Positions 35,043-53,915 of a stretch of DNA of 64,000 nt are shown here, in pieces. A program made the translations under genes and the position numbers. The stretch spans positions 1,184,001-1,248,000 of the forward strand of contig CAWJDT010000001.1 in the NCBI GenBank assembly GCA_963841735.1, written 5' to 3'. Numbering within the stretch: the stretch's first letter is position 1; each line of letters opens with the position of its first letter. Source of the DNA: an uncultured Actinomycetes bacterium (GTDB lineage: Bacteria > Actinomycetota > Thermoleophilia > RBG-16-64-13). The notes under the pieces were generated by a model. That model had not been told where the DNA came from. It saw nothing but the letters and a program-made list of their open reading frames with translations, and ran no database searches.

Positions 35043-36971
35043 CTACTTGATGTGTTTGCCCCGGTTCACGTAGTGGGTGTGCAGCAGCTCGTGGCTCTTG
35101 TGACCGCAGGGGCCGTCGGTGAGGAACTCCTTGTAAACCCGCAGCACCGCAGGGTTCTCGTACGACTTGCGCACGGTCATCTGCCGGTCTTCGCCGTAGA
35201 TGGCTCTGGCGCGGGCCGCCCGGATCTCCTTGTTGGTAGGCATGGGCTGACCGCCGCCGCCCAGGCAGCCGCCCGGGCAGGCCATGAACTCGATGAAGTG
35301 GCACTCGCTGAATTTGCCGCCGGCCTTGATATCTTCCATGACCTTGTGGGCGTTCGCCGTGCCGTGGGCCACGGCCACCTTGAGGGTGGCGCCCTTCAGC
35401 CAGTTCCAATTGGGCACCAGGTGCTTGAGCAGGTCGGGCACCGGGCCGACTTCGCTAACGGTGACCTCGGCGTAGCGTACGCCCTCGAAGCCCCGTACCG
35501 GCATGATGTCGCCGTGCTCGAAGATGGATTCCACCTTCTTGCCGGTCACCAGTTCGAGCACCGTTCGCAGTGCCGACTCCATGACTCCACCGGTGGCTCC
35601 GAAGATGAGTCCCGAACCGGTGGCGCCTCCGAACGGATCGTCGAAGTCGGTTCTAGGCAGTGAAGGCACGTCCAGCCCGGCCTGCCGGAACATGGCTCCG
35701 AGCTCCCGGGTGGTGAGTCCGAAGTCGACGTCCTGATAGCCGCTGGCGTTCATCTCCGGGCGGTTGCATTCGAACTTCTTGGCCGAGCAGGGCATGATGG
35801 CCACGCTGACGATGTCGGCCGGGTTCACGCCCATCTTCTCGGCGTAGAAGGTCTTGATGAGAGCCCCGAACATCTGCTGTGGGCTCTTTGCCGTGGACAG
35901 ATTGGGGATGAACTCGGGATAGAAGTGCTCACAATACTTGACCCACCCCGGCGAGCAACTGGTGAACTGCGGGAGGGCCATGGAAGCGTCGCCCTCCACC
36001 AGGGCCTTGTAGAGCCGGAGGATAAGCTCGGTGCCCTCTTCGATGATGGTGAGGTCGGCTGTGAAGTTGGTGTCGAACACGTGGTCGAAGCCCATGCGCT
36101 TGAGCGCGGTGTTCATCTGATAGGTGACGGTAGTTCCAGGCTCCAGGCCGAACATCTCGCCCATTGCCGCCCGGGGGGACGGAGCCGTCTGGACGATCAC
36201 GTGCTTGGTGGGATCGTCGAGCGCCTTCCATACCGGGGCCAGCGCCGGGTTGGCGTACAGGGCCGCGGTGGGGCAGCGGTTGATGCACTGCCCGCAGTTG
36301 ATGCAGACGGCCTCGATGAGTGGGATGTGCTCGAAGGTGGAGACCTCCACCTTGTTCGAGCGGTTGAGGACCTCCAGCACCCCCACCTCCTGCATGTCGA
36401 TGCAGGTGCGCACGCAACGCCGGCAGCGGATGCACTTGTTCATGTCGCGGACCACCGAGAAACTCGAGTCGTCCACGGGCACCGGGTTCTCCACGTGGCC
36501 GAAGCGGAACTTGTCGACCCCGTACTCCTCGGCCAGGGCCTGGAGCTCGCAGTGGCCGTTGCGGATGCACGCGTAGCAGTCGCCGCAGTGCTCGGAGAGC
36601 AGCAGGTCGAGCACGTGGCGGCGGGCGATGCGCACGGCCTTGGAATAGGTGTTGACCTTGATGGGCGCGGTGATGGGGTAGGCACACGAGGCCTGAAGGG
36701 TCCGCTGTCCTTCTACCTCTACCACGCAGATGCGGCAGATGCCGGCGACTTCGAGGTCGGGGTGATAGCACAGGGTGGGGATGCGCACTCCGATGCTCTT
36801 GGCCGCCTCGAGGATGGTGGTGCCCATGGGCACTTTGGTCTCGATGCCATCGATGGTGACATGCACTGTGGCGCCGAGGGCACCCGGAGCCGTCTGCTCC
36901 GGTTCAAGATCGGGCTGGAAAAGTTGGCTGAGTGGGGCGCGCCTGGTTGGCAGCGTGGATTTATCGGGCAT
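35043..36971 (-). CDS. hydA: [FeFe]-hydrogenase catalytic subunit, group A (copy 1)
   Basis: [2Fe-2S] (PTLC..ICRIC..SC), His-ligated cluster (HCGDC..C), 2x[4Fe-4S]; H-cluster motifs FTSCSPGW, MPCSAKKFEC, EFMACPGGCLGGGGQP; LLHT end. Confidence 0.96.
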   Translation of the reverse strand: MPDKSTLPTRRAPLSQLFQPDLEPEQTAPGALGATVHVTIDGIETKVPMGTTILEAAKSIGVRIPTLCYHPDLEVAGICRICVVEVEGQRTLQASCAYPITAPIKVNTYSKAVRIARRHVLDLLLSEHCGDCYACIRNGHCELQALAEEYGVDKFRFGHVENPVPVDDSSFSVVRDMNKCIRCRRCVRTCIDMQEVGVLEVLNRSNKVEVSTFEHIPLIEAVCINCGQCINRCPTAALYANPALAPVWKALDDPTKHVIVQTAPSPRAAMGEMFGLEPGTTVTYQMNTALKRMGFDHVFDTNFTADLTIIEEGTELILRLYKALVEGDASMALPQFTSCSPGWVKYCEHFYPEFIPNLSTAKSPQQMFGALIKTFYAEKMGVNPADIVSVAIMPCSAKKFECNRPEMNASGYQDVDFGLTTRELGAMFRQAGLDVPSLPRTDFDDPFGGATGSGLIFGATGGVMESALRTVLELVTGKKVESIFEHGDIMPVRGFEGVRYAEVTVSEVGPVPDLLKHLVPNWNWLKGATLKVAVAHGTANAHKVMEDIKAGGKFSECHFIEFMACPGGCLGGGGQPMPTNKEIRAARARAIYGEDRQMTVRKSYENPAVLRVYKEFLTDGPCGHKSHELLHTHYVNRGKHIK

Positions 36972-38151
36972 GGATCTCATCTCCGAAATGCTCGAGGATG
37001 GACATGAAGGCCACGGAGCTGGTCTGTCCCAACCCGCATTTGGAGGCGACCTGCATGGTGTTGGCGAGTCCCTTGAGTTCTTCCAGATACTCCGCGGTGC
37101 AGGTGCCCGCTTTGAGCATCTCCACGCCTTCGAGCAACTTGCCGTTGCCCACCCGGCAGGGGGTGCATTGGCCGCACGACTCATCCACAAAGAAGTCCAG
37201 CAGGTTGTGAGCCAGAGCGAGCATGTCCCTGTCGGGGCCGATGACTATGACCGAGCCTCCGGTGGGGATGTCCTCAAAGGCCAGCCTGCGCTCGAAGTCC
37301 TTCTTGGGAACGCACCTGCCCGAGGCTCCCCCTATCTGCACGGCCTTGGCCTGTTCGCCGCCCACTTCTTTCAGCAGTTCGGCCACGGTGATACCAAACG
37401 GGAACTGGTAGACCCCGGGTCGCTCGCAGTCGCCGGAGATGCTGAACAGCTTGTGGCCGGCCGAATTGTCGGTGCCGAAGCTCAGGAACCACTCGGCGCC
37501 GTTGCGGATGATGCAGGGCACCCAGGCCAGGGTCTCGACGTTGTTGACCACCGACGGGCGGTTGAGGAAGCCCGATACCACCGGGAAGGGCGGCCGGTTG
37601 CGGGGTTCACCTCGAAAGCCTTCGAGCGACTCGATGAGGGCCGTCTCCTCGCCGCAGACGTAGGCGCCTGCGCCCATGGCCACCATGATGTTGAAGTTGA
37701 AACCCTCGATACCGCCGATGTTCTGGCCCAGAAGTCCTTCGGTCTCGCGCCGTTTGATGACTTCGCTGAGATGGGGCTTCAGATAGGCGTACTCGGCGCG
37801 GAGGTAGATGAGACCCAGCGGGGCGCCGATGGCTCGGGCCCCTATGGTCATGCCCTCCATGACTAGGTCGGCATACTCGCTAAGGATGAGCCGGTCTTTG
37901 AAGGTGCCGGGCTCGCCCTCGTCGGCGTTGCACATGATGTACTTGGGACCGCGCTTCTCGGCCGCGGCGAAGTTCCATTTGATGCCTGTGGGGAAGCCGG
38001 CCCCGCCGCGCCCCTTCAGCTTGGAGTCGCGGATGGTGTCGATGATGTCGCCTCGGGACATGGCCAACGCCATCTTCAGGCCGTCGCCCGGCGGTACCTT
38101 CTCGAAGCAGAGCTCGTTGCGGGCGTTCTTCACCGCGATGTCGGCGCTCAT
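36961..38151 (-). CDS. hydB: Short NuoF/HoxF-like FMN/NADH subunit
   Basis: GRGGAGFPTG, NADEGEPGTFKDR, GAYVCGEET, ESCGQCTPCR..CGLG; no N-terminal thioredoxin or C-terminal ferredoxin domain. Confidence 0.9.
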   Translation of the reverse strand: MSADIAVKNARNELCFEKVPPGDGLKMALAMSRGDIIDTIRDSKLKGRGGAGFPTGIKWNFAAAEKRGPKYIMCNADEGEPGTFKDRLILSEYADLVMEGMTIGARAIGAPLGLIYLRAEYAYLKPHLSEVIKRRETEGLLGQNIGGIEGFNFNIMVAMGAGAYVCGEETALIESLEGFRGEPRNRPPFPVVSGFLNRPSVVNNVETLAWVPCIIRNGAEWFLSFGTDNSAGHKLFSISGDCERPGVYQFPFGITVAELLKEVGGEQAKAVQIGGASGRCVPKKDFERRLAFEDIPTGGSVIVIGPDRDMLALAHNLLDFFVDESCGQCTPCRVGNGKLLEGVEMLKAGTCTAEYLEELKGLANTMQVASKCGLGQTSSVAFMSILEHFGDEIHAR

Positions 38152-38669
38152 GAGGCACCTCCCGCGCTCGGCGCGGCGGCAGGGCCCTGCTGCCGCTTGC
38201 GGTAGTCGGCGACGACGGTGCTGACCTTGGCGGGCGTGAGCTTGGTGTAGATCTCCTCGTTCACCAGCATGGCCGGGCCCTGGTCGCACATGCCCATGCA
38301 GTTGGCCCACTCGAGGCTGAAGGCTCCGTCGCCGGTGATCTCGCCGAAGCCTATGCCGAGTTCCCGCTGCAGTCGCTCGGCCACCTCGTTCTTGCCGGCC
38401 AGCTCGCAGGAGTACGTGCGGCACAGCCGGAAGACGAACGCCCCTTGGGCATCCGGGGGGATGAAGGAATAGAAGGTCGAGACCGCGTGTACTTCCACCG
38501 GGTGGATGCTGAGCACGTCGGCGATGACCTGCATGGTGTCGCTGTCGAGTTCGCGGTACTTCTCTTTGACGCTGCGGAGAATGGGGATGAGCGAGGCGCG
38601 GCTGAAGTTGGTGCGGGCCGCGACTTCCTCTACCTCTTTGCGTAGTTGGGCCGTATCAGTGACTGCCAT
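38148..38669 (-). CDS. hydC: NuoE-like [2Fe-2S] subunit
   Basis: VSTFYSF, CRTYSC, CMGMCDQGP. Confidence 0.88.
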   Translation of the reverse strand: MAVTDTAQLRKEVEEVAARTNFSRASLIPILRSVKEKYRELDSDTMQVIADVLSIHPVEVHAVSTFYSFIPPDAQGAFVFRLCRTYSCELAGKNEVAERLQRELGIGFGEITGDGAFSLEWANCMGMCDQGPAMLVNEEIYTKLTPAKVSTVVADYRKRQQGPAAAPSAGGAS

Positions 38670-39052
38670 CAGGCGTCCTCCGACCTTGCCAGGAGCATCC
38701 TGACCTTCTGGATCAGGGTGGCGGGGTCTACCGGCTTTTCCAGGAACTCGTCCACCGGCACCATCTCGTCGTCTTTGCCGATCTGAATGCCCATGGCCCG
38801 GTTGACGCTGGTGAGCATGAGTATGGGGAGGGTCTTGCCCTCGCGCCGTGCTCTGCGGGCGAAGCGCAGGCCGTCATCGGCCTCCTCCATCATGACGTCA
38901 AGGATAAGCAGGTCGGGCCCGATCTCGTCCAGTTTGGCCAGCCCGCTCTCATAGTTGGGGGCGCTCTCCACCGAATACCCCTCGCGTTCGAGGACGATCC
39001 GGCCGGCCTCGACCATATCCGGATCGTCGTCCACTATCAGGATCTTAGACAC
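38669..39052 (-). CDS. Single-domain response regulator
   Basis: ILIVDDD, LLILDVMM, MLTS, KPVD. Confidence 0.92.
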   Translation of the reverse strand: MSKILIVDDDPDMVEAGRIVLEREGYSVESAPNYESGLAKLDEIGPDLLILDVMMEEADDGLRFARRARREGKTLPILMLTSVNRAMGIQIGKDDEMVPVDEFLEKPVDPATLIQKVRMLLARSEDA

Positions 39053-39143: not shown

Positions 39144-40355
39144 TCAGCCCCCAGCCCGTCGCGCGCCCACAGGCGTGGACGCCGGCGTTTCGGTGAGCGC
39201 CACCGTGTCGGGGGCCGCCGGGGCATCGGGAGCGGCGTCGCGCAGGGTGACCGTGAAAATACTGCCCGAGCCCCTCTCGCTATTGACCGAGGCGTCGCCG
39301 CCGTACATCTGTGCCAACTTGCGCACCGTCGAGAGCCCCAGTCCGCTGCCGAGGACCTTGATGGTGTCCTCGTTCTTGATGCGGACGAACTCGTTGAAAA
39401 GCTTCGCGCTCTCTTCGGGGGTCATGCCGATGCCGGTGTCGGCCACCTCGAGTCTCACCGCGTCGTCTTCCCGCTTCAGGGACACGGTGACGCTGCCGCC
39501 GTCGCGGTTGTATTTGACCGCGTTGGAGACCAGGTTGTCGAGCACTATCTCCACTTCGCTGGGATCGGCCGCCATTTCCACGGGTCGCGGAGCGCGCATT
39601 GTGATCTTGATGCCGCGTTCGGTCGCTTCGCCGGCGAAGAGATCGATGGTCCGCCGGGCGATGGCCCGCACATCCACTTGAGCGAACTGGCGGGCCTTCT
39701 GCCCCGACTCGATGCGTGTGAGGTCCAGAAGGTCGAATATGAGCTTGCGCATGCCGTCAAGGCGCAGCAGGCTGCGGTCGATCATCTGCCGGCGCTCGGG
39801 GGACTCGTCGCTCTGCAGTATCTTCAGGTATCCCTCGATGGCGTTGAGTGGGGCCTTGAGTTCGTGTGACAACACCGAGATGAAGTTGAAGCGTACCTGA
39901 CGCTGCTCCTCGGCCAGCCTGCGGGCCTCCCGGCTGGTGATGATCTGCTCGGTGGCCTTGCGTGCGCTGTAGCGGAGCTCCTCGGGCGAGAAGGGCTTGG
40001 CCAGAAAGTCGAAGGCCCCCAGTTTGGTGGACTGCACGGCCGTGTCGAAGGTGGCGTAGGCGGTGATCATGATGGTGGTGATCGTGCTCCCCTGACGGCT
40101 CAACTCAGCAAGGATATCCATGCCGCTCATGCCGGGAAGCTTGAGATCAAGCAGCAGTAGGTCGTACTCGTTGCCGGCGGCCGTGCTATCGAGAAATTCC
40201 TCTCCGTTGGCGAAATGGGAGTAGGAGTAGGTGACGTCCACGTCGACCGCGTCCACACGTACGCGGTACTTGGTCAGGATGCGGCGGACCGCCATGCTGA
40301 GCTGCACCTCGTCATCTACCATGGCCACTCTGAGTGTTTGGGCGGAGCCGGGCAT
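39144..40355 (-). CDS. Hybrid REC-HisKA-HATPase histidine kinase
   Basis: REC (VDDE, LLDLKLPG, KPF); SHELKAPL; NLVSNAVKY, DTGIGM, GSGLGL. Confidence 0.93.
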   Translation of the reverse strand: MPGSAQTLRVAMVDDEVQLSMAVRRILTKYRVRVDAVDVDVTYSYSHFANGEEFLDSTAAGNEYDLLLLDLKLPGMSGMDILAELSRQGSTITTIMITAYATFDTAVQSTKLGAFDFLAKPFSPEELRYSARKATEQIITSREARRLAEEQRQVRFNFISVLSHELKAPLNAIEGYLKILQSDESPERRQMIDRSLLRLDGMRKLIFDLLDLTRIESGQKARQFAQVDVRAIARRTIDLFAGEATERGIKITMRAPRPVEMAADPSEVEIVLDNLVSNAVKYNRDGGSVTVSLKREDDAVRLEVADTGIGMTPEESAKLFNEFVRIKNEDTIKVLGSGLGLSTVRKLAQMYGGDASVNSERGSGSIFTVTLRDAAPDAPAAPDTVALTETPASTPVGARRAGG

Positions 40356-42377
40356 CTATCGTCCCCCGTTCTCTTCGTGTCGCGGTAGGCTCACAGTCAA
40401 TGAAGTCCAGGTGGGACCGGTCGACCGATCGGCGTTGGATTCCGCCCCGACGTGTCCCTTGTGCATCTTGACGATGCCGTGGGTGACGGCCAGGCCCAGG
40501 CCGGTGCCCATGCCCAGCGGCTTGGTGCTGAAGAACGGGTCGAACAGATTGGGCATGTTCTCTGGGAGGATGCCCTGTCCGGTGTCGGTGACCTTGACGG
40601 TGACGGTATCCGGATCGTCGCTCAGAGCGATGGTGAGCGTGCCGCCCTCCGGCATGGCGTGCAGGGAGTTCGAGAAGAGGTTGGCGAACACCTGCACCAT
40701 CTGGTCCGGGTCGATGTCGGCTATGGGAGCGGAGAGGTGGTTCTGAAGCTTCACCTCCACGTTGTCGGCCCATGGCATGGTGCGGATAGTCCTCTCCACC
40801 AACTCAGCTATGTCGGTGGGTTGGCGGAGCAGCCGGCTCTGGCGGGAGAAGTTGAGCAGGCCCGAGATGATGCGCTTGCAGCGGTTGGCCTGGTCGACAA
40901 TTATCGCCAGGTCTTCCTTGATCTCGGAGTCGGCCTCGCACTCCTCCAGCAGAAGATTGGCGTGCAGTAGCAGTGTGCCAAGGGGGTTGTTGACCTCGTG
41001 GGCGATGCCGGCCGCAAGCTGGCCCATGCTGGCCAACTTGCCGGACCTCTCCAGGGCTTCTTTTGCCTCCTCGAGCGTGCGGTGCGACACCTCGAGCTCG
41101 TCGTAGGCAACACGCAACTGCTCGATGGTGTGCGGCAGGCACATCTCTGAATCGGCCAGTCCGGCGTAGACCGCCCGGGCGTGCTCAAGACAGCCGTCGT
41201 AGCCGCAGGCGCCGCAGTTGAGCAGATCCTCGGCCCCGTGCTTGCCCATACGTTGAAGGATGTCTTCTAGTTCCTCTTGCGTGGCCGAATCGCCCAGCGT
41301 CTGCTCGTCGGCGAGGTGCTCCCGAGAAAGGTCGATATAACTGTACTTCTGTACGTTCCCTTCGAACTCCGCCAGTTCTTCGGGTGTGAAGCCGGTCAGG
41401 CGATTCCGGGCGTAGGCGCTTACCAGGGTGCGGCGCTGAAGCATCGAGATGTCGCTGGTCATGCCCGCCCCCATGTAGCAGCCCTTGCAGGCCAGCACGT
41501 CGAGCAGCCGGGTGCCGGCGTGGGACTGGTCGAACTCGCTGATGGTGGCGACGAATTCTTCTTGTCCGTCGGCGATAATGACGTCACCGCTGAGGAGGTC
41601 CTCTTTGATGTGGGCGGTCTGAAGGAGGCCGCCCGGCAGGGGAAAGACCATTCCCACTCCACCGTTGGGGGGGTCGAAGCGGTGGTTCTCTGCGAACGAT
41701 GGCGGCTCGATGCCGCGTTTAGCGAACATAGTTCGCAGTTCGGCGAAGGTGAGCACAGCTTCGATTTCGTGGTGAATGAAGTCCACCGATGCCCTCTTCT
41801 TGGCAATGCAGGGGCCAATGAAGACTACTTTGAGGTCATCGCCCATCTCATGGCGCAGCACCCGGGCGATTGCGACCATGGGCGAGACCAAGGGGGCAAG
41901 ATTGGGTATCAGCCTGGGGTGGTACTTGCGTGCGTACGAAACCACCGCGGGACATGGCGTGGTGATGTAGCGCCCGTTGGGGTTGTCTTCGAGCAGACGT
42001 GTGTAGGCAGCGGCGACTAGGTCGGCGCCCAGCGCCACCTCGTGCACCGAATCGAAGCCTAGCGCCCGAATCATCCCTACCAGGGAGCCGGTAGGTATAT
42101 CCACAAACTCGGCCGGGAAGCTTGGGGCTACGATAGCCGCGACCCGGGAGTCGGACTCTAGTAGGTCGAAGGTGTGTTTGGTGTCATCGCGCACCTGCTT
42201 GGCATTTTGGCTGCATACGCGCAGACAGTTGCCACAGCCGATGCAGCGCGGCTGGATGACTCGGGCTTGGCCATCGACCACTTGGATGGCCTTTGCCGGG
42301 CACTCGCGTACGCAGGCATAACACATGCGGCACTTGTCGGTGACGATGGTGATAAGGGGGTTGTCCCAGGTAGGCAT
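40356..42377 (-). CDS. Sensory [FeFe]-hydrogenase-like (HydS/group C-type) protein fused to histidine kinase
   Basis: 2x[4Fe-4S] N-terminus; VAPSF; degenerate H-motifs ITTPCPA, GPCIAKK, LACKGC; FeS domain NCGACGYDGC..MCLP; AHEVNNPL, DTGQGI, GTGLGL; no TM segments. Confidence 0.88.
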   Translation of the reverse strand: MPTWDNPLITIVTDKCRMCYACVRECPAKAIQVVDGQARVIQPRCIGCGNCLRVCSQNAKQVRDDTKHTFDLLESDSRVAAIVAPSFPAEFVDIPTGSLVGMIRALGFDSVHEVALGADLVAAAYTRLLEDNPNGRYITTPCPAVVSYARKYHPRLIPNLAPLVSPMVAIARVLRHEMGDDLKVVFIGPCIAKKRASVDFIHHEIEAVLTFAELRTMFAKRGIEPPSFAENHRFDPPNGGVGMVFPLPGGLLQTAHIKEDLLSGDVIIADGQEEFVATISEFDQSHAGTRLLDVLACKGCYMGAGMTSDISMLQRRTLVSAYARNRLTGFTPEELAEFEGNVQKYSYIDLSREHLADEQTLGDSATQEELEDILQRMGKHGAEDLLNCGACGYDGCLEHARAVYAGLADSEMCLPHTIEQLRVAYDELEVSHRTLEEAKEALERSGKLASMGQLAAGIAHEVNNPLGTLLLHANLLLEECEADSEIKEDLAIIVDQANRCKRIISGLLNFSRQSRLLRQPTDIAELVERTIRTMPWADNVEVKLQNHLSAPIADIDPDQMVQVFANLFSNSLHAMPEGGTLTIALSDDPDTVTVKVTDTGQGILPENMPNLFDPFFSTKPLGMGTGLGLAVTHGIVKMHKGHVGAESNADRSTGPTWTSLTVSLPRHEENGGR

Positions 42378-44713: not shown

Positions 44714-47700
44714 TACTCCACGTCTCCTTGCGCATCAGCAGTGGCCGGCGCCGCTGTGGCGGCGGCCCCAGCGGGGATCTTGCCGTAGTCGCAGCGCAGG
44801 CAGCGCTTGGCCTCGGCACAGGCGGTTTCGAGGTCCCAGGAGAGCTCTACCTCGTCGAAGGTGCAGGCTCGGGCCTGGGCGTCCAGGCACACGACGGCCG
44901 CCCGCGGTGTGGCCACCGGGTCGGCGTCGGGGTCGAAGAACACGTCCACGGCGACGTCCTGGCGCCAGAAGGCGTGGTCGGAACCGGTGAGGTACCTGTC
45001 GATGGCCACGGCGGCACGCTCACCCGCGGCTATTGCCTCTACCACGGAGGCCGGGCCGGTCACCACGTCGCCTCCGGCGAACACCCAATCGAGATTGGTG
45101 GCCCCAGTCTGGGCGGCGGCCTTGATCCAGCCGTTGTCCATCTCGATAGGAAGATCACCGGTGAGCGTCCGTGGCTCGGGTGCCTGGCCGACAGCACCGA
45201 TGACCTGGTCGCAAGGCACGATGAAGCTGGGTTCCCGTCCTGCCACCGGACGGCGACGGCCGCTGCTGTCGTAGTCGCCCAGAACCATCTTGCGGCAGAG
45301 CACGCCAGTTACTTTGCCCTCCGCGTCATGTCTTATGGTCTCGGGGGCCGTCAGGGGCAACAGAGTGATGCCCTCTTCGTCGGCGGCAAGGATCTCCTCG
45401 GCCCAGGCGGGCATCTGCTCGCGCTGGCGCCGGTACAGGATGTTCACGTGCTTGGCACCCAGGCGGAGTGCGGTGCGGGCGGCGTCGATGGCGGAGTTGC
45501 CTCCTCCGACCACTGCCACTTCGGTGCCCACTTTCGCGGCACCGTTGACGTTGTACTCACGCAGGAAGGCAAGCGCGTCGGTGACTCCCTCGCCGGTTCC
45601 CTCTCCCTCTTCTCTGGAGAGGCCCAGGCCGAGACCGTTCGGGGCGCCTATGCCCAAGAAGGCTGCGTCGTATCCCTGGTTACGGAGGGCGGCCAGGGTG
45701 AAGTCGCGACCAAGCGCCTTGCCTGTCTCGATGGTCACGCCCATGGCTTGGATCATGCTGATTTCGCGTCCCAATTCCTCACGAGGCAGCCTGTAGGCCG
45801 GGATGGCCTGCACAAGCATGCCTCCCGCGCTGGCTTCCTTCTCGAAGATGGTGGGCGCGTATCCCAACCGGGCCAGGAAGTAGGCGCAGGAGAGGCCGGC
45901 CGGGCCGCCGCCGATGATGGCGATCTTCTTGGCGGCGTTCACGGCGCTCTTCTCTACCCGAGGAAGCTGCGCTTTGGTCTCCTGCTCGGTCATGAAGCGC
46001 TTGAGGCCGCGGATGGCCACCGGGTCGTCGAGCGAGCCGCGTTGGCACTTGCTCTCGCAGGGGTGGAAGCAGACCCGGCCGCAGATGCTGGCCAGCGGGT
46101 TGCGTTCCCTGTGCAGTCTCAGGGCTTCGTCGAAGCGCTCTTCACCGATCAGGCTCACGAATCCGGGCACGTTAACGGAGGCAGGGCAGGCGTTGGTGCA
46201 CTTGGCGGTGAACATGCTGGAGCAGACGCCGGCTTCGCAACGGTGGTTGCGGATGTGGGCCTCGAACTCCTTGCGGAAGTAGCGGATGTTGGCAAGCACC
46301 GGGTTGGGGGCGGTCTGACCGAGGCCGCAGAGGGCGGTGTCCTTGATCACCTTGCCCAGCTCCTCCAGCTTCTCGATGTCGCCCTCTTCGCCCCGGCCGT
46401 TGCAGATGCGGGTAACGATCTCGAGCATCCGCTTGGTTCCCACCCGGCACGGCACGCACTTGCCGCAGCTCTCCTCTTGGGTGAACTCCAGGAAGAAGCG
46501 GGACATGTCGACCATGCAGCTGTCTTCGTCCATGACGATGAGGCCGCCGGAGCCCATGATGGCCCCCAGCTCCTGCACTGATTCATAGTCTACCGGCACG
46601 TTGAGGTGCTGGCGGGGGATGGAGCCGCCCGACGGACCGCCCAGTTGGACGGCCTTGAACTGCTTGCCGCCCGGGATGCCGCCCGCTATCTCGTAGATGA
46701 TGTCGCCCAGGGGGATGCCCATGTCGACTTCCACCAGACCCACGTTGTTGACCTTGCCCGAGAGGGCGAAGATCTTGGTGCCGGGACTCTTCTCGGTGCC
46801 GGCCGTGCGGAACCAGCCGGCGCCCAGTCGGATGATGCCGGGCACGGTGGCCAGAGTCTCGACGTTGTTGAGCACCGAAGGCTTGCCCCACAGCCCTTTC
46901 TGGGCCGGGAACGGCGGGCGCGGCCGAGGCTCGCCCCGCTTCCCCTCTATGGAGGTCATGAGGGCCGTCTCTTCGCCGCAGACGAAAGCGCCCGAACCTT
47001 GGGCGATCTTGATATCGAAGTCGAAGTCGCTGCCGAGGATGTTCTTGCCGAGCAGACCGTAATCGCGCAGGGCTTCGATGGCCACCCCGAGACGCTCCAG
47101 GGCCAGAGGGTACTCGGCCCGGCAGTATATGTAGCCTTCGTGGGCGCCTATCGCCCGTGCGCCGATCATCATGCCCTCGAGCACCGCGTGAGGGTCGCTC
47201 TCCAGGATGCTGCGGTCCATGAACGCGCCGGGGTCACCCTCGTCCGCGTTACAGAGGATGTACTTCTGGTCGCCGGGGGCCTTGGCGCAGAACTGCCACT
47301 TGAGACCGGTGGGGAAGCCGGCGCCACCGCGGCCGCGCAGTCCGCTGCTCATGATCTCCTCGGCGATGCCCTGGGGCGTCATCTCTGTGAGGGCTTTGGC
47401 CAGAGCCGCATAACCATCGTTGGCGATGTACTCGTCGATCTTCTCGGCGGCGATGCGTCCCTTGTTGCGGAGCACGCGCAGGTTCTGCCGGGCGAAGAAG
47501 GGGATGTCCTTGAACAGAGGGATGCGCGCCTGGGTAGTGGGGTGCTCGTACATGAGCCGTTCGACGGGGCGGCCTTTGACGATGTGCTCAGCTACGATCT
47601 CGGCCGTGTCTTCGGGGGTGACCTTGTTGTAGAACACGCCGCCAGGGTAGATGACCATCAGCGGGCCGCCGGCGCAGAAGCCGTTGCAGCCGGTCTCTAT

Positions 47701-47841
47701 GACACTCACTTCGTCGGCGACGTTCTGGAGCGCCAGTTGCTCCAAGAGGGTAACCTTGACACGTTCGGCTCCTGAGGAGAGGCAGGCGGTGCCGAAGCAC
47801 ATCATGATGTGAATGTGAGGGGTCTTCGTAGCGCCCTTCAT
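44713..47841 (-). CDS. HydB/HndC-like subunit fused to GltD/NfnB-like FAD/NADP(H) oxidoreductase
   Basis: Thioredoxin-like [2Fe-2S] N-terminus, NADEGDPGAFMDR, GAFVCGEET, GGPSGG, ESCGKCVPCR; then CTNACP..CGRVCFHPCE, GGGPAG, GGGNSAID, YRR, GDVVTGP, EAKRCLRC. Confidence 0.9.
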   Translation of the reverse strand: MKGATKTPHIHIMMCFGTACLSSGAERVKVTLLEQLALQNVADEVSVIETGCNGFCAGGPLMVIYPGGVFYNKVTPEDTAEIVAEHIVKGRPVERLMYEHPTTQARIPLFKDIPFFARQNLRVLRNKGRIAAEKIDEYIANDGYAALAKALTEMTPQGIAEEIMSSGLRGRGGAGFPTGLKWQFCAKAPGDQKYILCNADEGDPGAFMDRSILESDPHAVLEGMMIGARAIGAHEGYIYCRAEYPLALERLGVAIEALRDYGLLGKNILGSDFDFDIKIAQGSGAFVCGEETALMTSIEGKRGEPRPRPPFPAQKGLWGKPSVLNNVETLATVPGIIRLGAGWFRTAGTEKSPGTKIFALSGKVNNVGLVEVDMGIPLGDIIYEIAGGIPGGKQFKAVQLGGPSGGSIPRQHLNVPVDYESVQELGAIMGSGGLIVMDEDSCMVDMSRFFLEFTQEESCGKCVPCRVGTKRMLEIVTRICNGRGEEGDIEKLEELGKVIKDTALCGLGQTAPNPVLANIRYFRKEFEAHIRNHRCEAGVCSSMFTAKCTNACPASVNVPGFVSLIGEERFDEALRLHRERNPLASICGRVCFHPCESKCQRGSLDDPVAIRGLKRFMTEQETKAQLPRVEKSAVNAAKKIAIIGGGPAGLSCAYFLARLGYAPTIFEKEASAGGMLVQAIPAYRLPREELGREISMIQAMGVTIETGKALGRDFTLAALRNQGYDAAFLGIGAPNGLGLGLSREEGEGTGEGVTDALAFLREYNVNGAAKVGTEVAVVGGGNSAIDAARTALRLGAKHVNILYRRQREQMPAWAEEILAADEEGITLLPLTAPETIRHDAEGKVTGVLCRKMVLGDYDSSGRRRPVAGREPSFIVPCDQVIGAVGQAPEPRTLTGDLPIEMDNGWIKAAAQTGATNLDWVFAGGDVVTGPASVVEAIAAGERAAVAIDRYLTGSDHAFWRQDVAVDVFFDPDADPVATPRAAVVCLDAQARACTFDEVELSWDLETACAEAKRCLRCDYGKIPAGAAATAAPATADAQGDVE

Positions 47842-48246
47842 CAGTGCTCACTCCCGAAGCTGAGCACGTATTGGGGAACGAGCTTCCCTTCGATGATGTT
47901 CTTCTGCCAGATCTCTCGGGCCTTGTCGGCGCTCGAGAGCGCCGTAGATGACTTTGGGTTGGTCGAGTACCTCGACTGTCATCACGGGCTCGTGCTCGCA
48001 GGCGCCGATGCACCCGGAAGTGGTCACTCGGATGTCGAGACGCTCCGAGGCCGCAAGCTCTGTAATCAGGGCCGACAGGACCTCGCGGGAACCGCTCGCT
48101 ATGCCACAGGTGCCCATGTGTACGGTGACCAGCGCGTGGTAACCGTCTTCGCGGAGCGCGTTCTCCCTCTGCGTCTTCTCCTTGATCGCAAGAAGATCGG
48201 CCAGTCCTTTGATCTTGTGGGAGCCGGCATCGTCAACTGGCGACAT
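47841..48246 (-). CDS. Thioredoxin-like [2Fe-2S] ferredoxin (HndB/HydD-like; frameshift near 47934)
   Basis: VHMGTCGIASG, SGCIGACEHEP; removing one base gives ..ADKAREIWQKNIIEGK..* with TGATG coupling to the next gene. Confidence 0.85.
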
Positions 48247-48784
48247 TCTCGATCACCTCTTCCTGCTCGTAGTAGGGGGCGAGCATCTGGCCGACACGAG
48301 AGGCCCGCACCCGCCGGTGTACGTCTTCGTCGATGGAGACCGCCGGCGCCAAGCCGCAGGCTCCGAAGCAGCGCGCCACTTCAAGGGAGAACATCCGATC
48401 CTCGGTGGTCTCGCCTACGTCGATGCCAAGTTTGTCTCTAACAGCGTCCAGAACCTGGAGACCACCGCGGACGTAGCAGGCCGTACCCAGGCAGACTCTG
48501 ATGATGTGCTTGCCTCGAGGAGTGGTGGAGAAGAACGAGTAGAAGCTCACTACCCCGGCTACCTCGCTGTAGGGCTTCTTCATCTGCCGGGCGATGTGCT
48601 TGAGGGCGAACTCGGGGAGATAGCCGCAGATGCCCTGGGCCTGTTGGAGCACGGGGATGAGTGCTCCGGGCTTGTCCTTGTATCGCCCTATGACTTCGTC
48701 GAGCCTGGCCACCAACTCCTCTTCGGAGACCTCGTCGCAGCAGCCCTCGCAACTGCTTCCGTTTGTCTTGCTCTCGTCGGGCAT
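48233..48784 (-). CDS. hydC: NuoE-like [2Fe-2S] subunit (HndA/HydC)
   Basis: Own SD (AAGGGAG) and ATG 48784; ALIPVLQQAQ, VVSFYSFF, CLGTAC, CFGACGLAP. Confidence 0.9.
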   Translation of the reverse strand: MPDESKTNGSSCEGCCDEVSEEELVARLDEVIGRYKDKPGALIPVLQQAQGICGYLPEFALKHIARQMKKPYSEVAGVVSFYSFFSTTPRGKHIIRVCLGTACYVRGGLQVLDAVRDKLGIDVGETTEDRMFSLEVARCFGACGLAPAVSIDEDVHRRVRASRVGQMLAPYYEQEEVIENVAS

Positions 48785-48786
48785 AT

Positions 48787-49324
48787 TTACGACTCCCTTG
48801 TCGGTTGGTTCATTGATCGGAGGCCCGGCCGCTCGCTCGGCGGGGCGGTGTGAAGCAAGCCTTGCGGCTGCCTCTTTGGGCGGTGCGTGGTCGAGGGGCG
48901 GCGTGAACTGGTCGCCCGCTAGGGATATGGTGAACTCGATCTGCGGATTGGTCGCGGCAGTGACGATCATGGTGGTGGCCACATCTCCCAGCGGGGGACG
49001 GTCCACATGGTTCAGGCGCATGAAGGTCTCCACTCGCACGCCCCCCAAGGACGGTGAAGGTTGGACGGTCAGGTCACCGCCGGCCGCCTGAGCTTCGGCC
49101 CTAAGGAGGCTGAGGCCCAGCCCGGTCTTCTTGCCGGGCTTGGTGGTGTAGAACGGGTCGAGGGTCTGTTCTGGGGTGGCGGCGAGACCGCTGCCGTCGT
49201 CGTCGACGGTGAGCCGAAGCGTGTCGGATCTCTGGTCCATGAACAGGCCTATGTCCATATGTGTCGCACCCGCGCGCGCCGAGTTCTCGAGCACCTCGAG
49301 TAGATAGAGGGATAGGTCATGCAC
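48787..49324 (-). CDS. HATPase_c kinase-like ATP-binding protein (reads in frame into hydC as assembled)
   Basis: MHDLSLYLLEVLENS, DDGSG, DPFYTT, GLGLSLL, HVDRPPLGD. Confidence 0.8.
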
Positions 49325-50111
49325 GGGCCACGCTCCGGTCTTGAGCTCCGGCGAAGGCCAGTAGCAGCTCGGCGAAGGTGGGCTCGGCCAGGCGCAGCGC
49401 GGTGGCCGCCGCGCCGATGTCGACCGGGTAGTGCGCGTCGGAGGCGCCGGTTACCGGCAGGCCTCGGAGGGCGGGAGTGTCGAGCAGCGTTGAGGTCGGC
49501 GCGAAGTGGCGTGAGACCTCGATGCCGTCGAAGCCTGCATCTTCGGGGAAGAACCCCAGTTGGGAGAATACGCTGAAGGCCTTGCGGTCCACATGCGCGG
49601 CGATGGCCAGTCCGCCCCGACTGTGGATAAGCTCCACCGCTTCGCTTAGGTCGAGGGAGGTGGCGCTCGCCAGTTCTACAGTCTCTTGGCCGGTGACGTA
49701 GCCGTCGGCGGTGAGCAATTGCTGTTCCCCGAAGAACGCGTAGTACTTTTCATCGGCCCGGGGCAGCATGCCGCTCAGTGTGGCGGCGACGCTCTCGACT
49801 GCCGAAAGGTCAGGGAACAAGGCAAGAACATGCACCTCTTCCAGGGAGGCGATCTCCATTCCTGGTATTACGGTAAGACCACCACCGGCAGCTTCGGCCG
49901 CTTGTTGGACGGCCGCCACGTTGCCCGCCGAGTTGTGGTCGCAGACGGCAATCATGTCAAGCCCCGCCTCCAGAGCGCTCCGCACGATGGTGGGCGGAGT
50001 CATTTGCTCCGACCCGCAGGGCGAGAGCGCCGAGTGGATGTGCAGATCGGCCCGGAACGTGCGCAGACGTGCGTCCAAGGGTGAGGACCCGGCTGTGGAC
50101 CCGGCACTCAA
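49317..50111 (-). CDS. PHP-domain phosphoesterase
   Basis: DLHIHSALSPC, CDHN, GMEI..EEVH, AHVDR, SDAH; start uncertain. Confidence 0.88.
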   Translation of the reverse strand: MSAGSTAGSSPLDARLRTFRADLHIHSALSPCGSEQMTPPTIVRSALEAGLDMIAVCDHNSAGNVAAVQQAAEAAGGGLTVIPGMEIASLEEVHVLALFPDLSAVESVAATLSGMLPRADEKYYAFFGEQQLLTADGYVTGQETVELASATSLDLSEAVELIHSRGGLAIAAHVDRKAFSVFSQLGFFPEDAGFDGIEVSRHFAPTSTLLDTPALRGLPVTGASDAHYPVDIGAAATALRLAEPTFAELLLAFAGAQDRSVARA

Positions 50112-50154
50112 GCATGGCATCCTTCCGTAAGGGACTTGGCTGTGGGGGCGCCGG

Positions 50155-50532
50155 TCATGCGCCGCCGCCCCTGATGCCCAACTCGTAGAGGCGGCCTGCC
50201 AGGTCGAACGTATCGGCGCGAGAGACGTAGAGCGCAAGGCCCTCCTCGGTCGCCCTCGCGATGACATCGGGCTCGGGAGTCCGCCCGCACGAGAAGATCA
50301 CCCCGTGAAGCCCTGCGTGGCTGGCCACGGCGATGACGTTGAGGTGCACCTGTAGAGTGATCAGGATCCCGCCGGTGGGAGCGTTGGCCAGCACGTCGCT
50401 CAGTAGGTCGGAGGCGTAGGCCCGGGTGATGTCGGCGTCGACCGCGGGGTTGTCCCCTTCTCCGGCCGGTCGCTCTAGGCCGGGAGTCAGCGCTTGAAGA
50501 TCAAGGACTTGAGCCAGCTCTTGCAGTCTCAT
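50155..50532 (-). CDS. DRTGG-domain protein
   Basis: YASDLLSDVLA, ITLQVHLNVIAVA, TFDLAGRLY. Confidence 0.85.
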   Translation of the reverse strand: MRLQELAQVLDLQALTPGLERPAGEGDNPAVDADITRAYASDLLSDVLANAPTGGILITLQVHLNVIAVASHAGLHGVIFSCGRTPEPDVIARATEEGLALYVSRADTFDLAGRLYELGIRGGGA

Positions 50533-52376
50533 CGGTCGCGGTCCTCCTTCTCACCGTTCACACGGGCGGTGTAGGGGCACAGTTCGACACCGGCCCGTTG
50601 CATGACGACGTCTTCGGCCAGGGCTGCGCAGGTGGGGGCGCCACAGGTGCCGCAGTCCTTGCCCGGCAGGGAGTGGGTGACCTGCTGCAGGTGACCCAGC
50701 TTCTGGATGGCTTTGCCCATGTCGGCATCGAGCCGGATGCCCGGCCGGGGGGCATAAGGCCGCCGGCGCGGCTGCGGGGCGGGCGCGGGCACCGAGGCCG
50801 CGCCGGCGGTGCCGACGGGTCCCGCGGAGTCGCCGCCCCCGGCCGCAGCGCCGGGCTTGGCGCCTCCCAGGGCGCCGGCCGCCTCGGCGACTTCGACCGC
50901 CTCCCGGCCACGTTGCCAGCGGCGGGCGGCTACATGGTGGTCTTCAGATAGCAGCGGGGAGCCGAAGCACCCGCCTTCGCAGGCATATGGGTCGATGGCG
51001 GCCACGTCGCCAAGCAGGCCGTCCTCGATCTGCTCCAGCAGCTTGATCACGTGGGTGATGCCGGTGACCGTCAGCAGTGCATCGGTGTTGTGGTCGGTCT
51101 CCGTCACGGTTGCCTGGGGGTGCGTGGTGATCGGCGCCAGGGCCTCGCTGCGCGGCTCCAGGCTTGAACCGGCTCCACCTGTGAGCTTCATCATGACGGC
51201 TTGGCGGAAGGGCCCGGGTGCCAAGTATTCGGCGGCTGCACCCACGGCTGCGGGTGGTCCGTCGGCACTCGCGTCGCTCCCGTCTTGGCCTGGTGTTTCT
51301 GGCACATGTAGGAGTAGGGCGGAGCGCTGGCTGGGGCACGAGACCACATAGGCGACCGGCCTGCCGCCGTGCGCGGCCTGCACCGCTTCCCAGGGCGAAT
51401 CGAACGGGGCCAGGTGAGGCACCAGCGAGGGGAAGCGGAGCTCGACCAGATTGGTAATCGCTGGGCACGAGGATGTGATCAGCGGCCGGGGACGGGCCGC
51501 GGAGTCGGTCGCGCTTTCGGCTGGGGCCGCGCCTATGGCCGCGGCGTCGTCGCAGGATGTCGCCTCGGCCATCGCCAGCACCGCCGCGCGCAGCGCCTGT
51601 TCGTACGGCGCCGAAGTGATCACCTCGGCAAAGCCCAGGCCTTGGAGAGCGGCCATTACCTGTGCCGGCGGATAGTCGGCGCCACACCCGGCCAGCAGAG
51701 CCGGCGGTACTACCAGCAGCATGTCCTCTTTGCCGGGCAGCGCCTCCAGATTGGAGAGTTCGTCGCGCATGGTCAGAGCGCCACTGCTACAGGCGGCGAT
51801 GCAGGCCGTGCAGTCTACGCAGAGGTGTTCGAGCACGCTCGGGCGCCCGTCACGCACCCGCAGCGCCTGCGTGGGGCAGGCGGTCAGGCAGGCCCGGCAG
51901 TCACGGCAGCGATCGGCCGAGGCGTAGAGCGAGATGGGCCGCGCTCCGTCGCTGCTGCCTGGCTGCAGATCGACGGTGAAGCTTACCCGGGTGCCTTTTC
52001 CCATGCGGGAGGTCACCCGCAGGCGATCACTGTTGCGCTTAATGTTGGGCAGTCCCATGCCCGCCCCGAAGCCGAGCGCCCGGGCCTCGGCACCGGCTGT
52101 GGAGAAACCCTCTACCATGGCCTGCTCCACATCGGGAATGCCCGGACCTCCGTCCACCACGTTCACGTCTATCTGGGACGCCGAGAGGCAAGCCTCCAGG
52201 CGGCCGCCGACGGAGTGTATGACCACGTTCATCTCGGCTTCGTAGGCGGCGATCATGGTGCGGCGGATGGCTTCAGCCTCGGCCCCGATGCGTTTGAGGT
52301 GTTCCTTGATGGCGCGCGAGGCGGCGCCCGCCCGGCGGAAGTCGTTGCTCTCTATGTCGTATGACAAGAATTCCAT
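50529..52376 (-). CDS. RsbW/RsbT-like kinase fused to degenerate [FeFe]-hydrogenase-like FeS domain
   Basis: YEAEMNVVIH, DGGPGIPD, GFST, GFGAGMGLPN; then 2x[4Fe-4S], ITSSCPA, VSCPSQ, ACEGGCFG, LPGKDCGTCGAPTC. Confidence 0.85.
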   Translation of the reverse strand: MEFLSYDIESNDFRRAGAASRAIKEHLKRIGAEAEAIRRTMIAAYEAEMNVVIHSVGGRLEACLSASQIDVNVVDGGPGIPDVEQAMVEGFSTAGAEARALGFGAGMGLPNIKRNSDRLRVTSRMGKGTRVSFTVDLQPGSSDGARPISLYASADRCRDCRACLTACPTQALRVRDGRPSVLEHLCVDCTACIAACSSGALTMRDELSNLEALPGKEDMLLVVPPALLAGCGADYPPAQVMAALQGLGFAEVITSAPYEQALRAAVLAMAEATSCDDAAAIGAAPAESATDSAARPRPLITSSCPAITNLVELRFPSLVPHLAPFDSPWEAVQAAHGGRPVAYVVSCPSQRSALLLHVPETPGQDGSDASADGPPAAVGAAAEYLAPGPFRQAVMMKLTGGAGSSLEPRSEALAPITTHPQATVTETDHNTDALLTVTGITHVIKLLEQIEDGLLGDVAAIDPYACEGGCFGSPLLSEDHHVAARRWQRGREAVEVAEAAGALGGAKPGAAAGGGDSAGPVGTAGAASVPAPAPQPRRRPYAPRPGIRLDADMGKAIQKLGHLQQVTHSLPGKDCGTCGAPTCAALAEDVVMQRAGVELCPYTARVNGEKEDRDR

Positions 52377-52389
52377 GAGGGTCGTAGGG

Positions 52390-53535
52390 TCAGCCTCTGT
52401 CTTCCTGCGTCTCGGGGGGAGGAGTCCCGAGGAAAGGCGCTTCGGGGGTGATAGCTTCGGGCGAGAGCAGTCGGTAGATCAGGCCGCAGGTCTCAAAGAC
52501 GCCCAAGGGCGAGACCATGAGCAGGGTGCCGTCTTCCGCGGCCAGATCGACGATCTCCGGTCCCGGATCTACCCCATCGACGAAACAGATGCCGGGGACC
52601 TCCATCAACTCGGCCACTTTCACCATCTGCAGATTGGCTAGGTTGGTGACCAACAGGGTCTTGTCGGAGGCCTCGCTCAGGAGGTCGCTCACTCGGTCGC
52701 CTGCATAGATGCGGGTGACCTCGCCTGCGTCTTCGGGGTGTGGTGTGAGTACCCGTGCGCCGATCTTGCCGGCGAGCTCTTGAAGCCCCATGTGCGCCTC
52801 CGACAGCAGGGTGTCATGCGTGTGGATGATGGGCTCCATCTCCACATCGGCACCGGTCTCCACCCCTTCCTCGGTGACGCAGGCCGCGCTGCCGGACATC
52901 TGTTCTTCGCGGGCGAAGAACGCGGCCGACTCCAGAGCCGACGTGATGTCCATGTGGTCCACGAATACGTTCTCGGGCACCTGCAGGGGGATGGCCGTGA
53001 AGTCCACGATGCTCCGTACGCCCGCGCGCACCAAAGCTTCGGCGGTGGTCTGCGCGGTCTCGGGCGGCACAGCCAGGATGGCGATGCGGATGCGCTTGGC
53101 TCTGACGATGGGTTCCAGGTCGCGAAGATGGTGCACCGGACAGCCCTCGATGGAGGTCCCGACTGAAGCCGGGTTTGTGTCGAAGCCCGCCGCGATGCGC
53201 AGCAGCGGGCGGCGGCCGGCGAAGTGGGCCAGTACCGACTGGCCCAGCCGGCCCAGGCCCACAAGAGCCACATCTTGGCGCGTGGAACCGTCGAGCAGGC
53301 TCGAGATGGCTTCCAGGCAGGTTTCCACCTGATAGCCACGGTTGGGGCTGCCCGAGTAGCCGATGACCATGAAGTCGCGCCGGACTTGGGTGGCGCTGAC
53401 CCCCGCCAGATGGGCCAGTTGGTGAGAGAAGATGCTGGTGGTGCCGGAGTCCCTGAGGTTGTCGAGCAGCCGACGGTAGAGGCTGAGCCTGCCCACCGTC
53501 TTGCGGGATACTCCCGGCTTTGCTGGCGCTCCCAC
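52390..53535 (-). CDS. rex: Redox-sensing repressor Rex with C-terminal DRTGG domain
   Basis: RLSLYRR, SHQLA, QVRRDF..GY; Rossmann VGLGRLG, GFD, ILAVP; then YAGDRVSDLL, LLVTNL, FETCGLIY. Confidence 0.88.
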   Translation of the reverse strand: MGAPAKPGVSRKTVGRLSLYRRLLDNLRDSGTTSIFSHQLAHLAGVSATQVRRDFMVIGYSGSPNRGYQVETCLEAISSLLDGSTRQDVALVGLGRLGQSVLAHFAGRRPLLRIAAGFDTNPASVGTSIEGCPVHHLRDLEPIVRAKRIRIAILAVPPETAQTTAEALVRAGVRSIVDFTAIPLQVPENVFVDHMDITSALESAAFFAREEQMSGSAACVTEEGVETGADVEMEPIIHTHDTLLSEAHMGLQELAGKIGARVLTPHPEDAGEVTRIYAGDRVSDLLSEASDKTLLVTNLANLQMVKVAELMEVPGICFVDGVDPGPEIVDLAAEDGTLLMVSPLGVFETCGLIYRLLSPEAITPEAPFLGTPPPETQEDRG

Positions 53536-53563
53536 GTTCGCCGCTCCGTCCCTTTCGCAGCAA

Positions 53564-53598
53564 TCGTTACAGAGATAACACCGTTACGTGTTTCACAA
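53564..53598. promoter_or_regulatory. Two tandem Rex-like operator sites
   Basis: TCGTTACAGAGATAACAC and CCGTTACGTGTTTCACAA resemble TTGT(G/T)AA-N4-TT(C/A)ACAA; lie in the divergent promoter region. Confidence 0.55.
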
Positions 53599-53666
53599 GT
53601 TACTCCTCCGGGGTAGCAAAGGTCAATGTACAATGACGGTGTTTCGTAGTCGAATGAGGAGGAGAC

Positions 53667-53915
53667 ATGAAGCACACGATCTTCGGCATCCACATCACCA
53701 ACCGGGTCGAGAATGTTCCCGCGTTGCAGGCCACCCTAACCAAGTACGGCTGCAACATCCGCACCCGGCTGGGCGTCCACGATGCCGACGCCACCAGTTG
53801 CTCCCCCAGCGGCTTGGTGCTGGTGGATGTCTTCGGCGTCGAAGTCGAGGATTTCTACCGCGAACTCCAAGGGCTCAAGGGCGTGGGTCTGCAAAGAATG
53901 GACTTTGAAGAATAG
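53667..53915 (+). CDS. Small ACT-like iron-only hydrogenase system regulator-like protein (TM1266-related)
   Basis: GAGGAG SD; LTKYGCNIRTRLGVH..CSPSGLVL. Confidence 0.75.
   Translation: MKHTIFGIHITNRVENVPALQATLTKYGCNIRTRLGVHDADATSCSPSGLVLVDVFGVEVEDFYRELQGLKGVGLQRMDFEE

Follow-up and report, generated by a model that had tools for sequence, protein, structure and literature searches.

A conserved [FeFe]-hydrogenase gene cluster in maturase-free Thermoleophilia and a linked candidate cofactor importer

The 64,000-nucleotide window analysed here (the whole stretch of DNA, G000:C1:1184001-1248000) belongs to an actinobacterial assembly, G000 (2.82 Mb, 8 contigs, 89.7% complete), and carries a minus-strand gene cluster for two [FeFe] hydrogenases together with a divergent NitT/TauT-type ATP-binding cassette (ABC) importer whose binding protein, permease and ATPase are encoded by a single operon (Table 1). 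Six H-domain genes were found in the genome, including those of a second locus at C1:866-875 kb, and the canonical maturation system, in which hydE, hydF and hydG are all present in the genome, was not. The lineage has lost hydEFG repeatedly, as profile searches and empty sites reveal; that the linked importer brings in the di-iron [2Fe] subsite in ready-made form, or else a close precursor, is a proposal drawn from the distribution of these genes, to which we give an even chance of being right. The operon layout is a conserved assembly of known parts, and the loss of the maturases with a linked importer is a testable angle on a standing question, since the means by which organisms that lack HydEFG acquire active [FeFe] hydrogenase is a question for which a pathway not yet known has been proposed (PMC11216029); the locus names a specific candidate. 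An earlier annotation made from the letters of this stretch alone (the sequence-only reading) had described the cluster, and the lack of maturases, the linked importer and the frameshifts in hydA1 and hydD were absent from it.

Loss of the HydEFG maturases

Profile searches of G000 returned no HydG, and tblastn with two sets of HydE, HydF and HydG queries from relatives returned only generic GTPase and weak radical-SAM matches; NifH, the NiFe large subunit, HypC and HypD were likewise not found in this genome, NifH being present in one of the five genomes tested. Among 61 genomes of the same taxonomic order (own order), 44 carry hydA, 12 have a hydG match (10 above the cut-off, and one of the 12 a partial match in a hydA-free genome, G066) and 11 have hydF. 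Neither hydG nor hydF was detected in 32 of the 44 hydA-bearing genomes, or in 15 of the 24 that are at least 90% complete, where incompleteness predicts about one. The sister order served as the control: hydG is present in 48 of 53 hydA-bearing genomes and in 27/27 of those of high quality. Furthermore, a maturase cassette stands at the second hydrogenase locus in G016, G019, G021 and G042, and the genes that flank it are directly adjacent, with no cassette between them, in G046, G050, G054 and G072; the corresponding region of G000 is rearranged, so that no empty site can be demonstrated there. A second type of cassette, with TM1266 first and a HydG about 52% identical, occupies other sites in six genomes and may represent re-acquisition.

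The catalytic subunits show no corresponding change. Between genomes with and without maturases, seven motif blocks of HydA1 and HydA2 do not differ (frameshift artefacts aside), the H-cluster and proton-path motifs are unchanged regardless of maturases, and no relaxed selection was detected at the motif level on the hydA genes of maturase-free genomes.

Two further features of the cassettes were observed. In four genomes (L080:16673-18628, L076, L079 and L082) HydG shares one reading frame with an N-terminal DtxR/MntR-like metalloregulator domain, and most maturase cassettes, in either order, have a gene resembling aspartate ammonia-lyase placed between hydG and hydF (L103, L045, L080).

An ABC importer linked to maturase-free hydrogenases

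In the sister order, the genes after hydA are hydG, a small gene, usually aspA, hydF and hydE (10 of 11 loci with enough flank); hydG is absent from this site in G101, and the long clusters have a GAF kinase gene between hydA2 and hydG. The small gene, there a member of the maturase operon, is of the type found at 53667-53915, which in the own order heads the importer genes (binding protein, permease, ATPase). In 27 own-order genomes the gene for the binding protein points away from rex, and in four it stands directly 3' of hydA2, the place of the maturase genes in the sister order; it was found in 42/44 hydA-bearing and 0/17 hydA-free genomes of the own order, and in none of 61 genomes of the sister order.

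This association was compared with that in a sample of 401 Actinomycetota, in which hydA was scored at E 1e-60 or better (30 genomes; 15 others with a weaker best H-domain match were counted as hydA-free), HydG above its cut-off (6 genomes) and the importer by a broader profile (28 genomes). An importer homologue is present in 23 of 24 genomes with hydA and without hydG, in two of the six with both, and in three of the 371 without hydA, where one of the three homologues stands next to a fragment of hydA at the end of a contig. Sixteen of 25 importer matches outside the order lie within about 2 kb of hydA and two more within 10 kb; in the hydG-free importer genomes outside the order, HydF was found in 0/20 tested (positive controls worked) and HydE in 0/4. 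The link recurs in several families, with group A and with lower-scoring, probably group B, hydA genes. In Collinsella aerofaciens hydA abuts the importer (0.9 Mb record), and in G494, G242 and Vescimonas a TM1266 gene lies directly 5' of it. In three lineages the importer is preceded by a gene of the maturase operon.

The structures nearest to the predicted model of the binding protein are BDI_1369 (3HN0), the PQQ-binding protein PqqT (9B1U), Thi5, TauA and SsuA. The modelled fold is that of NitT/TauT/SsuA-type binding proteins (TM of about 0.6-0.7 on the query, 13-25% identity), which shows a predicted small-molecule binder and not which molecule it binds. Downstream of the importer, a 155-aa gene (56798-57265, plus strand) is found here and in many own-order genomes, and two tandem homocitrate synthase (NifV-like) genes lie directly 3' of the importer in G024 (L038:712-3226).

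A proposed import route and its alternatives

In the scheme that we propose, maturase-bearing neighbours would release the [2Fe] subsite or a close precursor, the divergent importer, headed by a former maturase-operon gene, would take it up, and apo-HydA with its [4Fe-4S] cluster would accept it without HydF; the sensor kinase of the cluster would depend on the same cofactor. A route by way of the known products of HydG or HydE is unlikely because HydF is missing too, and the finished subsite would be the simplest cargo. Added [2Fe] mimics are reported to activate apo-HydA inside Escherichia coli cells that lack HydEFG (PMC8163306, PMC9400101). A broader form of the proposal, to which we lean slightly less than to its opposite, is that many anaerobic bacteria are H-cluster auxotrophs: having lost HydE, HydF and HydG, they would take up the complete organometallic di-iron subsite by a dedicated ABC importer, a system drawn from a single family on at least two occasions, and the cofactor would be a community good like vitamin B12. 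If true, this would provide a natural uptake route for an iron-carbonyl-cyanide cofactor, account for strains that have hydrogenase and yet yield no H2 when grown alone, change the genome-based prediction of H2 production, and make a transporter available for artificial maturation in whole cells. The candidate importer has homologues in culturable gut bacteria, for example C. aerofaciens.

A number of observations weigh against import of the subsite. The importer is kept by genomes that have maturases: by 11 of 12 in the own order, by G228 and G472, and by Acetoanaerobium noterae, in which hydA and hydG are present but no hydA lies within 8 kb of the importer. G515 has hydA with no match to hydG, hydF or the importer, and G169 and G215 carry the importer without an H-domain. 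Of eight records from a plasmid collection, five have neither hydA nor TM1266 beside the importer (two of these unannotated and searched by tblastn) and a sixth has neither among its annotated genes; records of Paraclostridium, Haliovirga and Parabacteroides have no hydrogenase within 6 kb of it. In 80 metagenome loci of a proteobacterial importer branch, hydA is nearby in none and NnrS in 47, a scan whose alignment represents the proteobacterial-like branch and says nothing on the two hydrogenase-linked clades outside Actinomycetota. The two hydA-linked clades of binding proteins are 23-29% identical and stand apart on the tree (FastTree, 126 sequences, midpoint root, no topology test), and the own-order clade adjoins the NnrS-linked proteobacterial group. 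Related genomes are not independent, so the Fisher values are overstated; in the G000 assembly itself, hydA1, hydD and the genes for the binding protein and ATPase are frameshifted. A free [2Fe] subsite is not known to occur in the environment.

The importer could instead feed a maturation that is independent of HydEFG with something simpler, be it an iron chelate, a one-iron synthon or a sulfur compound. For archaea and some protists a route of this kind has been suggested in outline, full maturases being reported in only 5 of 130 archaeal genomes with [FeFe] hydrogenase (PMC11216029), and both the structural neighbours of the modelled binding protein (TauA/SsuA and binders of thiamine precursors among them) and the retention of the importer in maturase-bearing genomes would fit a general supply role. 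We nevertheless consider it unlikely: no candidate enzyme for forming CO or CN was found in G000 among those searched (HydG/HydE, NifH, HypC/D), and genomes of the sister order have this FeS-rich cluster but no importer. Quite unlikely, too, is a general role in supplying this FeS-rich locus with iron or sulfur or in protecting it from nitrosative stress, with the maturase-free hydA genes being recent relics or cofactor-free electron wires. Related binding proteins do adjoin NnrS, Crp/Fnr, hcp and hemerythrin genes; at the cluster itself five own-order genomes lack hydA2, four of them hydA1 as well, and have a formate dehydrogenase cassette inserted; G054 has no catalytic genes at the second locus; and Olsenella umbonata, whatever its maturase status, expressed hydrogenase with no detectable H2 (bioRxiv 10.1101/2024.08.15.608110). 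The di-iron pocket and proton-path motifs, however, are invariant across maturase-free genera, and a stress role would have to accommodate the recurrence of the hydA link in several families, with group A and probably group B enzymes, and the position of the importer 3' of a maturase-operon gene in three lineages.

Maturases that are present but were overlooked, in unbinned DNA, incomplete assemblies or as divergent sequences, are a very improbable explanation. G000 is incomplete, all the genomes are assemblies, and 12 of the 44 hydA-bearing own-order genomes do have a maturase match; yet the syntenic sites are empty, the same search found hydG in every high-quality control genome, two independent profiles agree, and G024, G054, G055 and G072 lack maturases at 98-100% completeness.

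The importer family extends beyond hydrogenases in a large branch (L136-L139, L140-L219) with genes for a TonB receptor, NnrS and Crp/Fnr. Speculatively, the NnrS-linked and the hydrogenase-linked contexts of the importer may share iron that carries diatomic ligands (NO in the one; CO and CN in the other). One record, L227 (NZ_CP128848.1), is labelled as a Streptomyces plasmid, and its genes give the impression of being clostridial in style, which would suggest possible contamination.

Organization and conservation of the cluster

From 53535 to 35043 on the minus strand, the open reading frame (ORF) list and profile scans give the order Rex-DRTGG, RsbW-like kinase with an H-domain-like region, DRTGG, PHP, HATPase with HydC, HydD, HydB-GltD and HydA1, followed by a receiver (REC), H-domain histidine kinase, REC-histidine kinase, REC, HydC', HydB' and HydA', with four PF02906 matches in the stretch. 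The domain order given in the sequence-only reading is thereby confirmed, as are the presence of Rex, a kinase-fused H-domain and a phosphorelay and the probable actinobacterial host, the related records being Actinomycetota, Thermoleophilia. Its count of 17 co-oriented genes, 16 of which it named, is reduced to 15 ORFs because HATPase and HydC share one reading frame (48233-49324), and the gene ending at 53915, the limit of the region it had given, starts at 53667 on the plus strand and is divergent from rex.

Table 1. Features of the hydrogenase cluster and the adjoining importer (positions in the window)
Feature	Coordinates	Strand	Evidence
Rex fused to DRTGG domain	52390..53535	-	NCBIfam Rex subfamily above cut-off; fused in 28/30 own-order and 12/12 sister-order loci
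RsbW-like Ser/Thr kinase with ferredoxin, degenerate H-domain and FeS domain	50529..52376	-	Pfam; fused in 31/32 own-order and 11/11 sister-order loci
DRTGG-domain protein	50155..50532	-	Pfam PF07085, below cut-off
PHP phosphoesterase, start uncertain (50078-50120)	49317..50120	-	Pfam, homologue coverage
HATPase-HydC in a single frame, with a probable additional start for HydC	48233..49324	-	Pfam; in frame in only 7/33 own-order loci
HydD, one-base frameshift at about 47930	47840..48246	-	Profile and comparison with relative
HydB fused to GltD/NfnB-like DPD-II and FAD module, without C-terminal ferredoxin domain	44713..47841	-	Profiles, alignment
HydA1, group A catalytic subunit, one-base frameshift at about 44090	42940..44713	-	Profiles, comparison with relative
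GC-rich 11-pair hairpin in hydA1-REC gap; possible terminator or processing site	42886..42911	-	Hairpin scan
REC1, single-domain receiver	42377..42853	-	Pfam
Group C-type H-domain fused to HisKA/HATPase; putative H2 sensor kinase	40356..42377	-	Pfam; matches in 41/61 genomes of the order
REC-histidine kinase hybrid	39144..40355	-	Pfam
REC2, single-domain receiver; moves with the last hydrogenase module	38669..39052	-	Pfam, relatives
HydC'; HoxF-like fusion with HydB' in many relatives	38148..38669	-	Fused in 14/38 own-order loci
Short HydB' (396 aa), non-bifurcating type	36961..38151	-	Pfam, alignment
HydA2, group A catalytic subunit, H-cluster motifs intact	35043..36971	-	NF040763 above cut-off
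Small CPF_0552-family protein, distantly TM1266-like	53667..53915	+	80.6 bits against cut-off of 85
NitT/TauT-type ABC substrate-binding protein, frameshift at about 54500; candidate cofactor binder	54029..55101	+	Homologues, structure search
ABC permease, start inferred from G004	55076..56011	+	PF00528
ABC ATPase, frameshift at about 56160	56008..56674	+	Homologues

Loci were compared from 40 of the 60 other own-order genomes, of which 17 show, like G000, the complete series of genes between Rex and hydA2, the remainder being cut by contig ends or rearranged; the full order was also found in 11/12 sister-order genomes, a value that is not a frequency because these were picked for hydA spacing like that of G000. 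Fusions of Rex to DRTGG and of the kinase to the H-domain-like region are near-universal, and those of HATPase to HydC and of HydC' to HydB' are variable (Table 1). A misassembly of two hydA loci was considered and ruled out, the identical order recurring in many independent assemblies.

Neighbouring genes overlap or abut at ten of the 14 junctions (by their ORF coordinates, with hydD and hydA1 read through their breaks and the start of hydA' uncertain), and gaps of 86 bp 3' of hydA1, containing the hairpin, and 91 bp 5' of the last REC are likely unit boundaries. The REC-C'-B'-A' module is inverted in seven own-order genomes (G016, G023, G043, G045, G054, G057 and G074) and lies about 25 kb away in G012. 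At the hydA1-REC1 border a cassette with a selenocysteine-type formate dehydrogenase is inserted in five own-order genomes: in G008, G011, G003 and G007 both hydA genes are missing from the main locus, and in G010 hydA1 is kept. The hairpin after hydA1, the inversion and displacement of the last module and the insertion of the cassette lead us to regard the cluster as conserved and modular, with probably two or three transcription units. The model of the sequence-only reading, a single transcript of all 19 kb with a phosphorelay that shifts activity between the two enzymes according to H2 pressure, is compatible with any of the readings of the importer and was judged separately; we regard it as quite unlikely. 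The overlapping junctions and the conservation of the order in two orders speak for one transcript, whereas the hairpin and gaps at module borders, the mobility of the last module and insertions at both borders speak against it. Against a switch through the phosphorelay, Pfam returned no DNA-binding output domain in the relay, and no fusion of a receiver to HydC was found in the best 120 of 184 longer homologues or in 47 loci. The relay has three receivers in total, and that it acts on proteins rather than DNA is a guess.

The inserted cassette (L005:4432-9473, L006, L003, L038) encodes a formate transporter, a rubrerythrin-like protein, formate dehydrogenase and a cNMP-binding protein; an in-frame TGA stands at the active-site position of the formate dehydrogenase, and G000 has tRNA-Sec and a related formate dehydrogenase elsewhere in its genome. 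In one relative (L001:13934-16788) part of the relay and HydC' is duplicated in tandem, which may be real or an assembly artefact.

Hydrogenases and sensors

The predicted functions divide the cluster into a first module, comprising the Rex/kinase/PHP cassette and a putative NAD(P)H-linked HydABCD, with a GltD-like flavin module on its HydB, a second with the kinase-fused H-domain, two receivers and a hybrid kinase, and a third with a probably non-bifurcating NADH-linked enzyme. The two hydrogenases with different partners that the sequence-only reading had claimed are borne out, in that the diaphorase subunits differ. HydA2 and both halves of HydA1 have the three H-cluster motifs and an adjacent NuoF-like subunit, as group A3 of HydDB requires. 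The core of Bfu enzymes, defined by the full HydB cluster set including a C-terminal B3/B4 ferredoxin domain (PMC9304861, PMC11406978), is lacking: HydB-GltD has a DPD-II/FAD module in place of that domain, and HydB' terminates after the NADH 4Fe-4S domain.

By the criteria of PMC7311640, the NADH site carries Ala/Glu and Met in bifurcating types and Thr/Ser and Lys/Ser/Ala in non-bifurcating types, and the flavin mononucleotide (FMN) site has Phe in the former and Tyr in the latter; a five-residue SLBB signature marks the bifurcating types and is absent from the non-bifurcating ones, which also have fewer FeS domains. HydB-GltD has the bifurcating residues, as judged by eye in alignments with bifurcating chains and not directly on Thermotoga maritima numbering, and the GltD module would imply linkage to NADPH. 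HydB' is non-bifurcating in its NADH site, absent SLBB signature and FeS domains, and has Phe, not Tyr, at the FMN site. The second cluster at 866-875 kb (L049) comprises Rex, REC, HydC, HydB with the C-terminal ferredoxin domain, HydA, a kinase-fused H-domain, REC and REC-kinase, and probably encodes the true bifurcating enzyme of G000; in G054 the catalytic genes of this locus are deleted and the sensor genes remain.

Two H-domain sensors had also been claimed, of which the group C-type kinase stands and the first proves degenerate. The former (673 aa) combines PF02906 (138 bits) with HisKA and HATPase, the domain set of group C; its cluster cysteines and the lysine of the second motif are visible by eye, and the proton-transfer cysteine is absent. 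The latter (615 aa) matches positions 14-105 of 245 in the H-domain profile and, by eye, is without the lysine that is conserved in the second H-cluster motif, and judging from this sequence it is unlikely to hold a full H-cluster.

Relation to known systems

The sequence-only reading had not recognised the layout as a whole as described; the full order in fact recurs in two orders, and every module has a counterpart in the literature (PMC11406978, PMC7311640, PMC5037454, PMC8163306). HydB-GltD matches BfuABC sub-type I, in which a DPD-II and FAD module replaces HydB B3/B4, and HydB' matches sub-type II, which lacks B3-B5, is noted in Actinomycetota and co-occurs with other sub-types (Zheng and Huang 2024, PMC11406978), in so far as sequence features can decide. 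The same source describes a histidine-kinase-bearing group C protein adjoining bfuA and HATPase-bearing group C1 proteins without clear H-cluster motifs, both of which have their likeness here; it differs in that its accessible text does not present the modules as a single uninterrupted block that includes Rex and receivers, nor does it mention maturase loss or an importer. The non-bifurcating HydAB of Syntrophus aciditrophicus and Hyd1ABC of Syntrophomonas wolfei (PMC7311640) resemble the last module in the short HydB' without extra FeS domains, the NADH-site residues and the lack of the SLBB signature, and both fused and split C/B forms occur there as for HydC'/HydB'; the FMN-site phenylalanine differs from that type and is that of the bifurcating type.

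Putative sensory proteins of HydDB groups C1 and C3 (PMC5037454), TmHydS and TamHydS (PMC8163306) share with the putative sensors here the ferredoxin, H-domain and C-terminal FeS domain and the adjoining group A enzyme and HATPase gene, but the present ones are fused directly to HisKA/HATPase or to an RsbW-like kinase, and no PAS domain was found in them. Melioribacter roseus (Mros2480-2488, PMC3534657) likewise has two multimeric [FeFe] hydrogenases with neighbouring locus tags, one with fused accessory subunits; no sensor is named in the portion available, and the comparison is by description, not by sequence. Archaea, Giardia and Entamoeba also have hydA without hydEFG (PMC11216029), relative to which the sister-order control, the empty sites and the linked importer provide a concrete candidate route. 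In the open-access literature, which leaves subscription papers uncovered, no report was found of an importer linked to maturase-free hydrogenases.

Frameshifts, regulatory signals and neighbouring genes

Each break in hydA1 and hydD is a single extra base relative to the close relative G004, and hydA1 is continuous at the junction near 44090 in 27 of 30 own-order genomes scored (G000 among the 30). Few-contig relatives show scattered frameshifts at other positions, so an assembly error is the likely cause of both breaks. A genome-wide estimate of 24 frameshift sites per 102 kb was confounded by broken query sequences and set aside. Scans of the DNA found no sigma-70 promoter sites (2.3 expected) and 14 terminator-like sites (9.8 expected), the former uninformative and the latter so except for the long hairpin after hydA1, and an Rfam search of the window and five loci returned tRNAs only. 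A stretch 5' of rex resembles, by eye, a half-site of the Rex operator consensus. At 62468-63025 on the plus strand, a truncated transposase-like ORF, also noted by eye, adjoins a tRNA gene (62201-62274).

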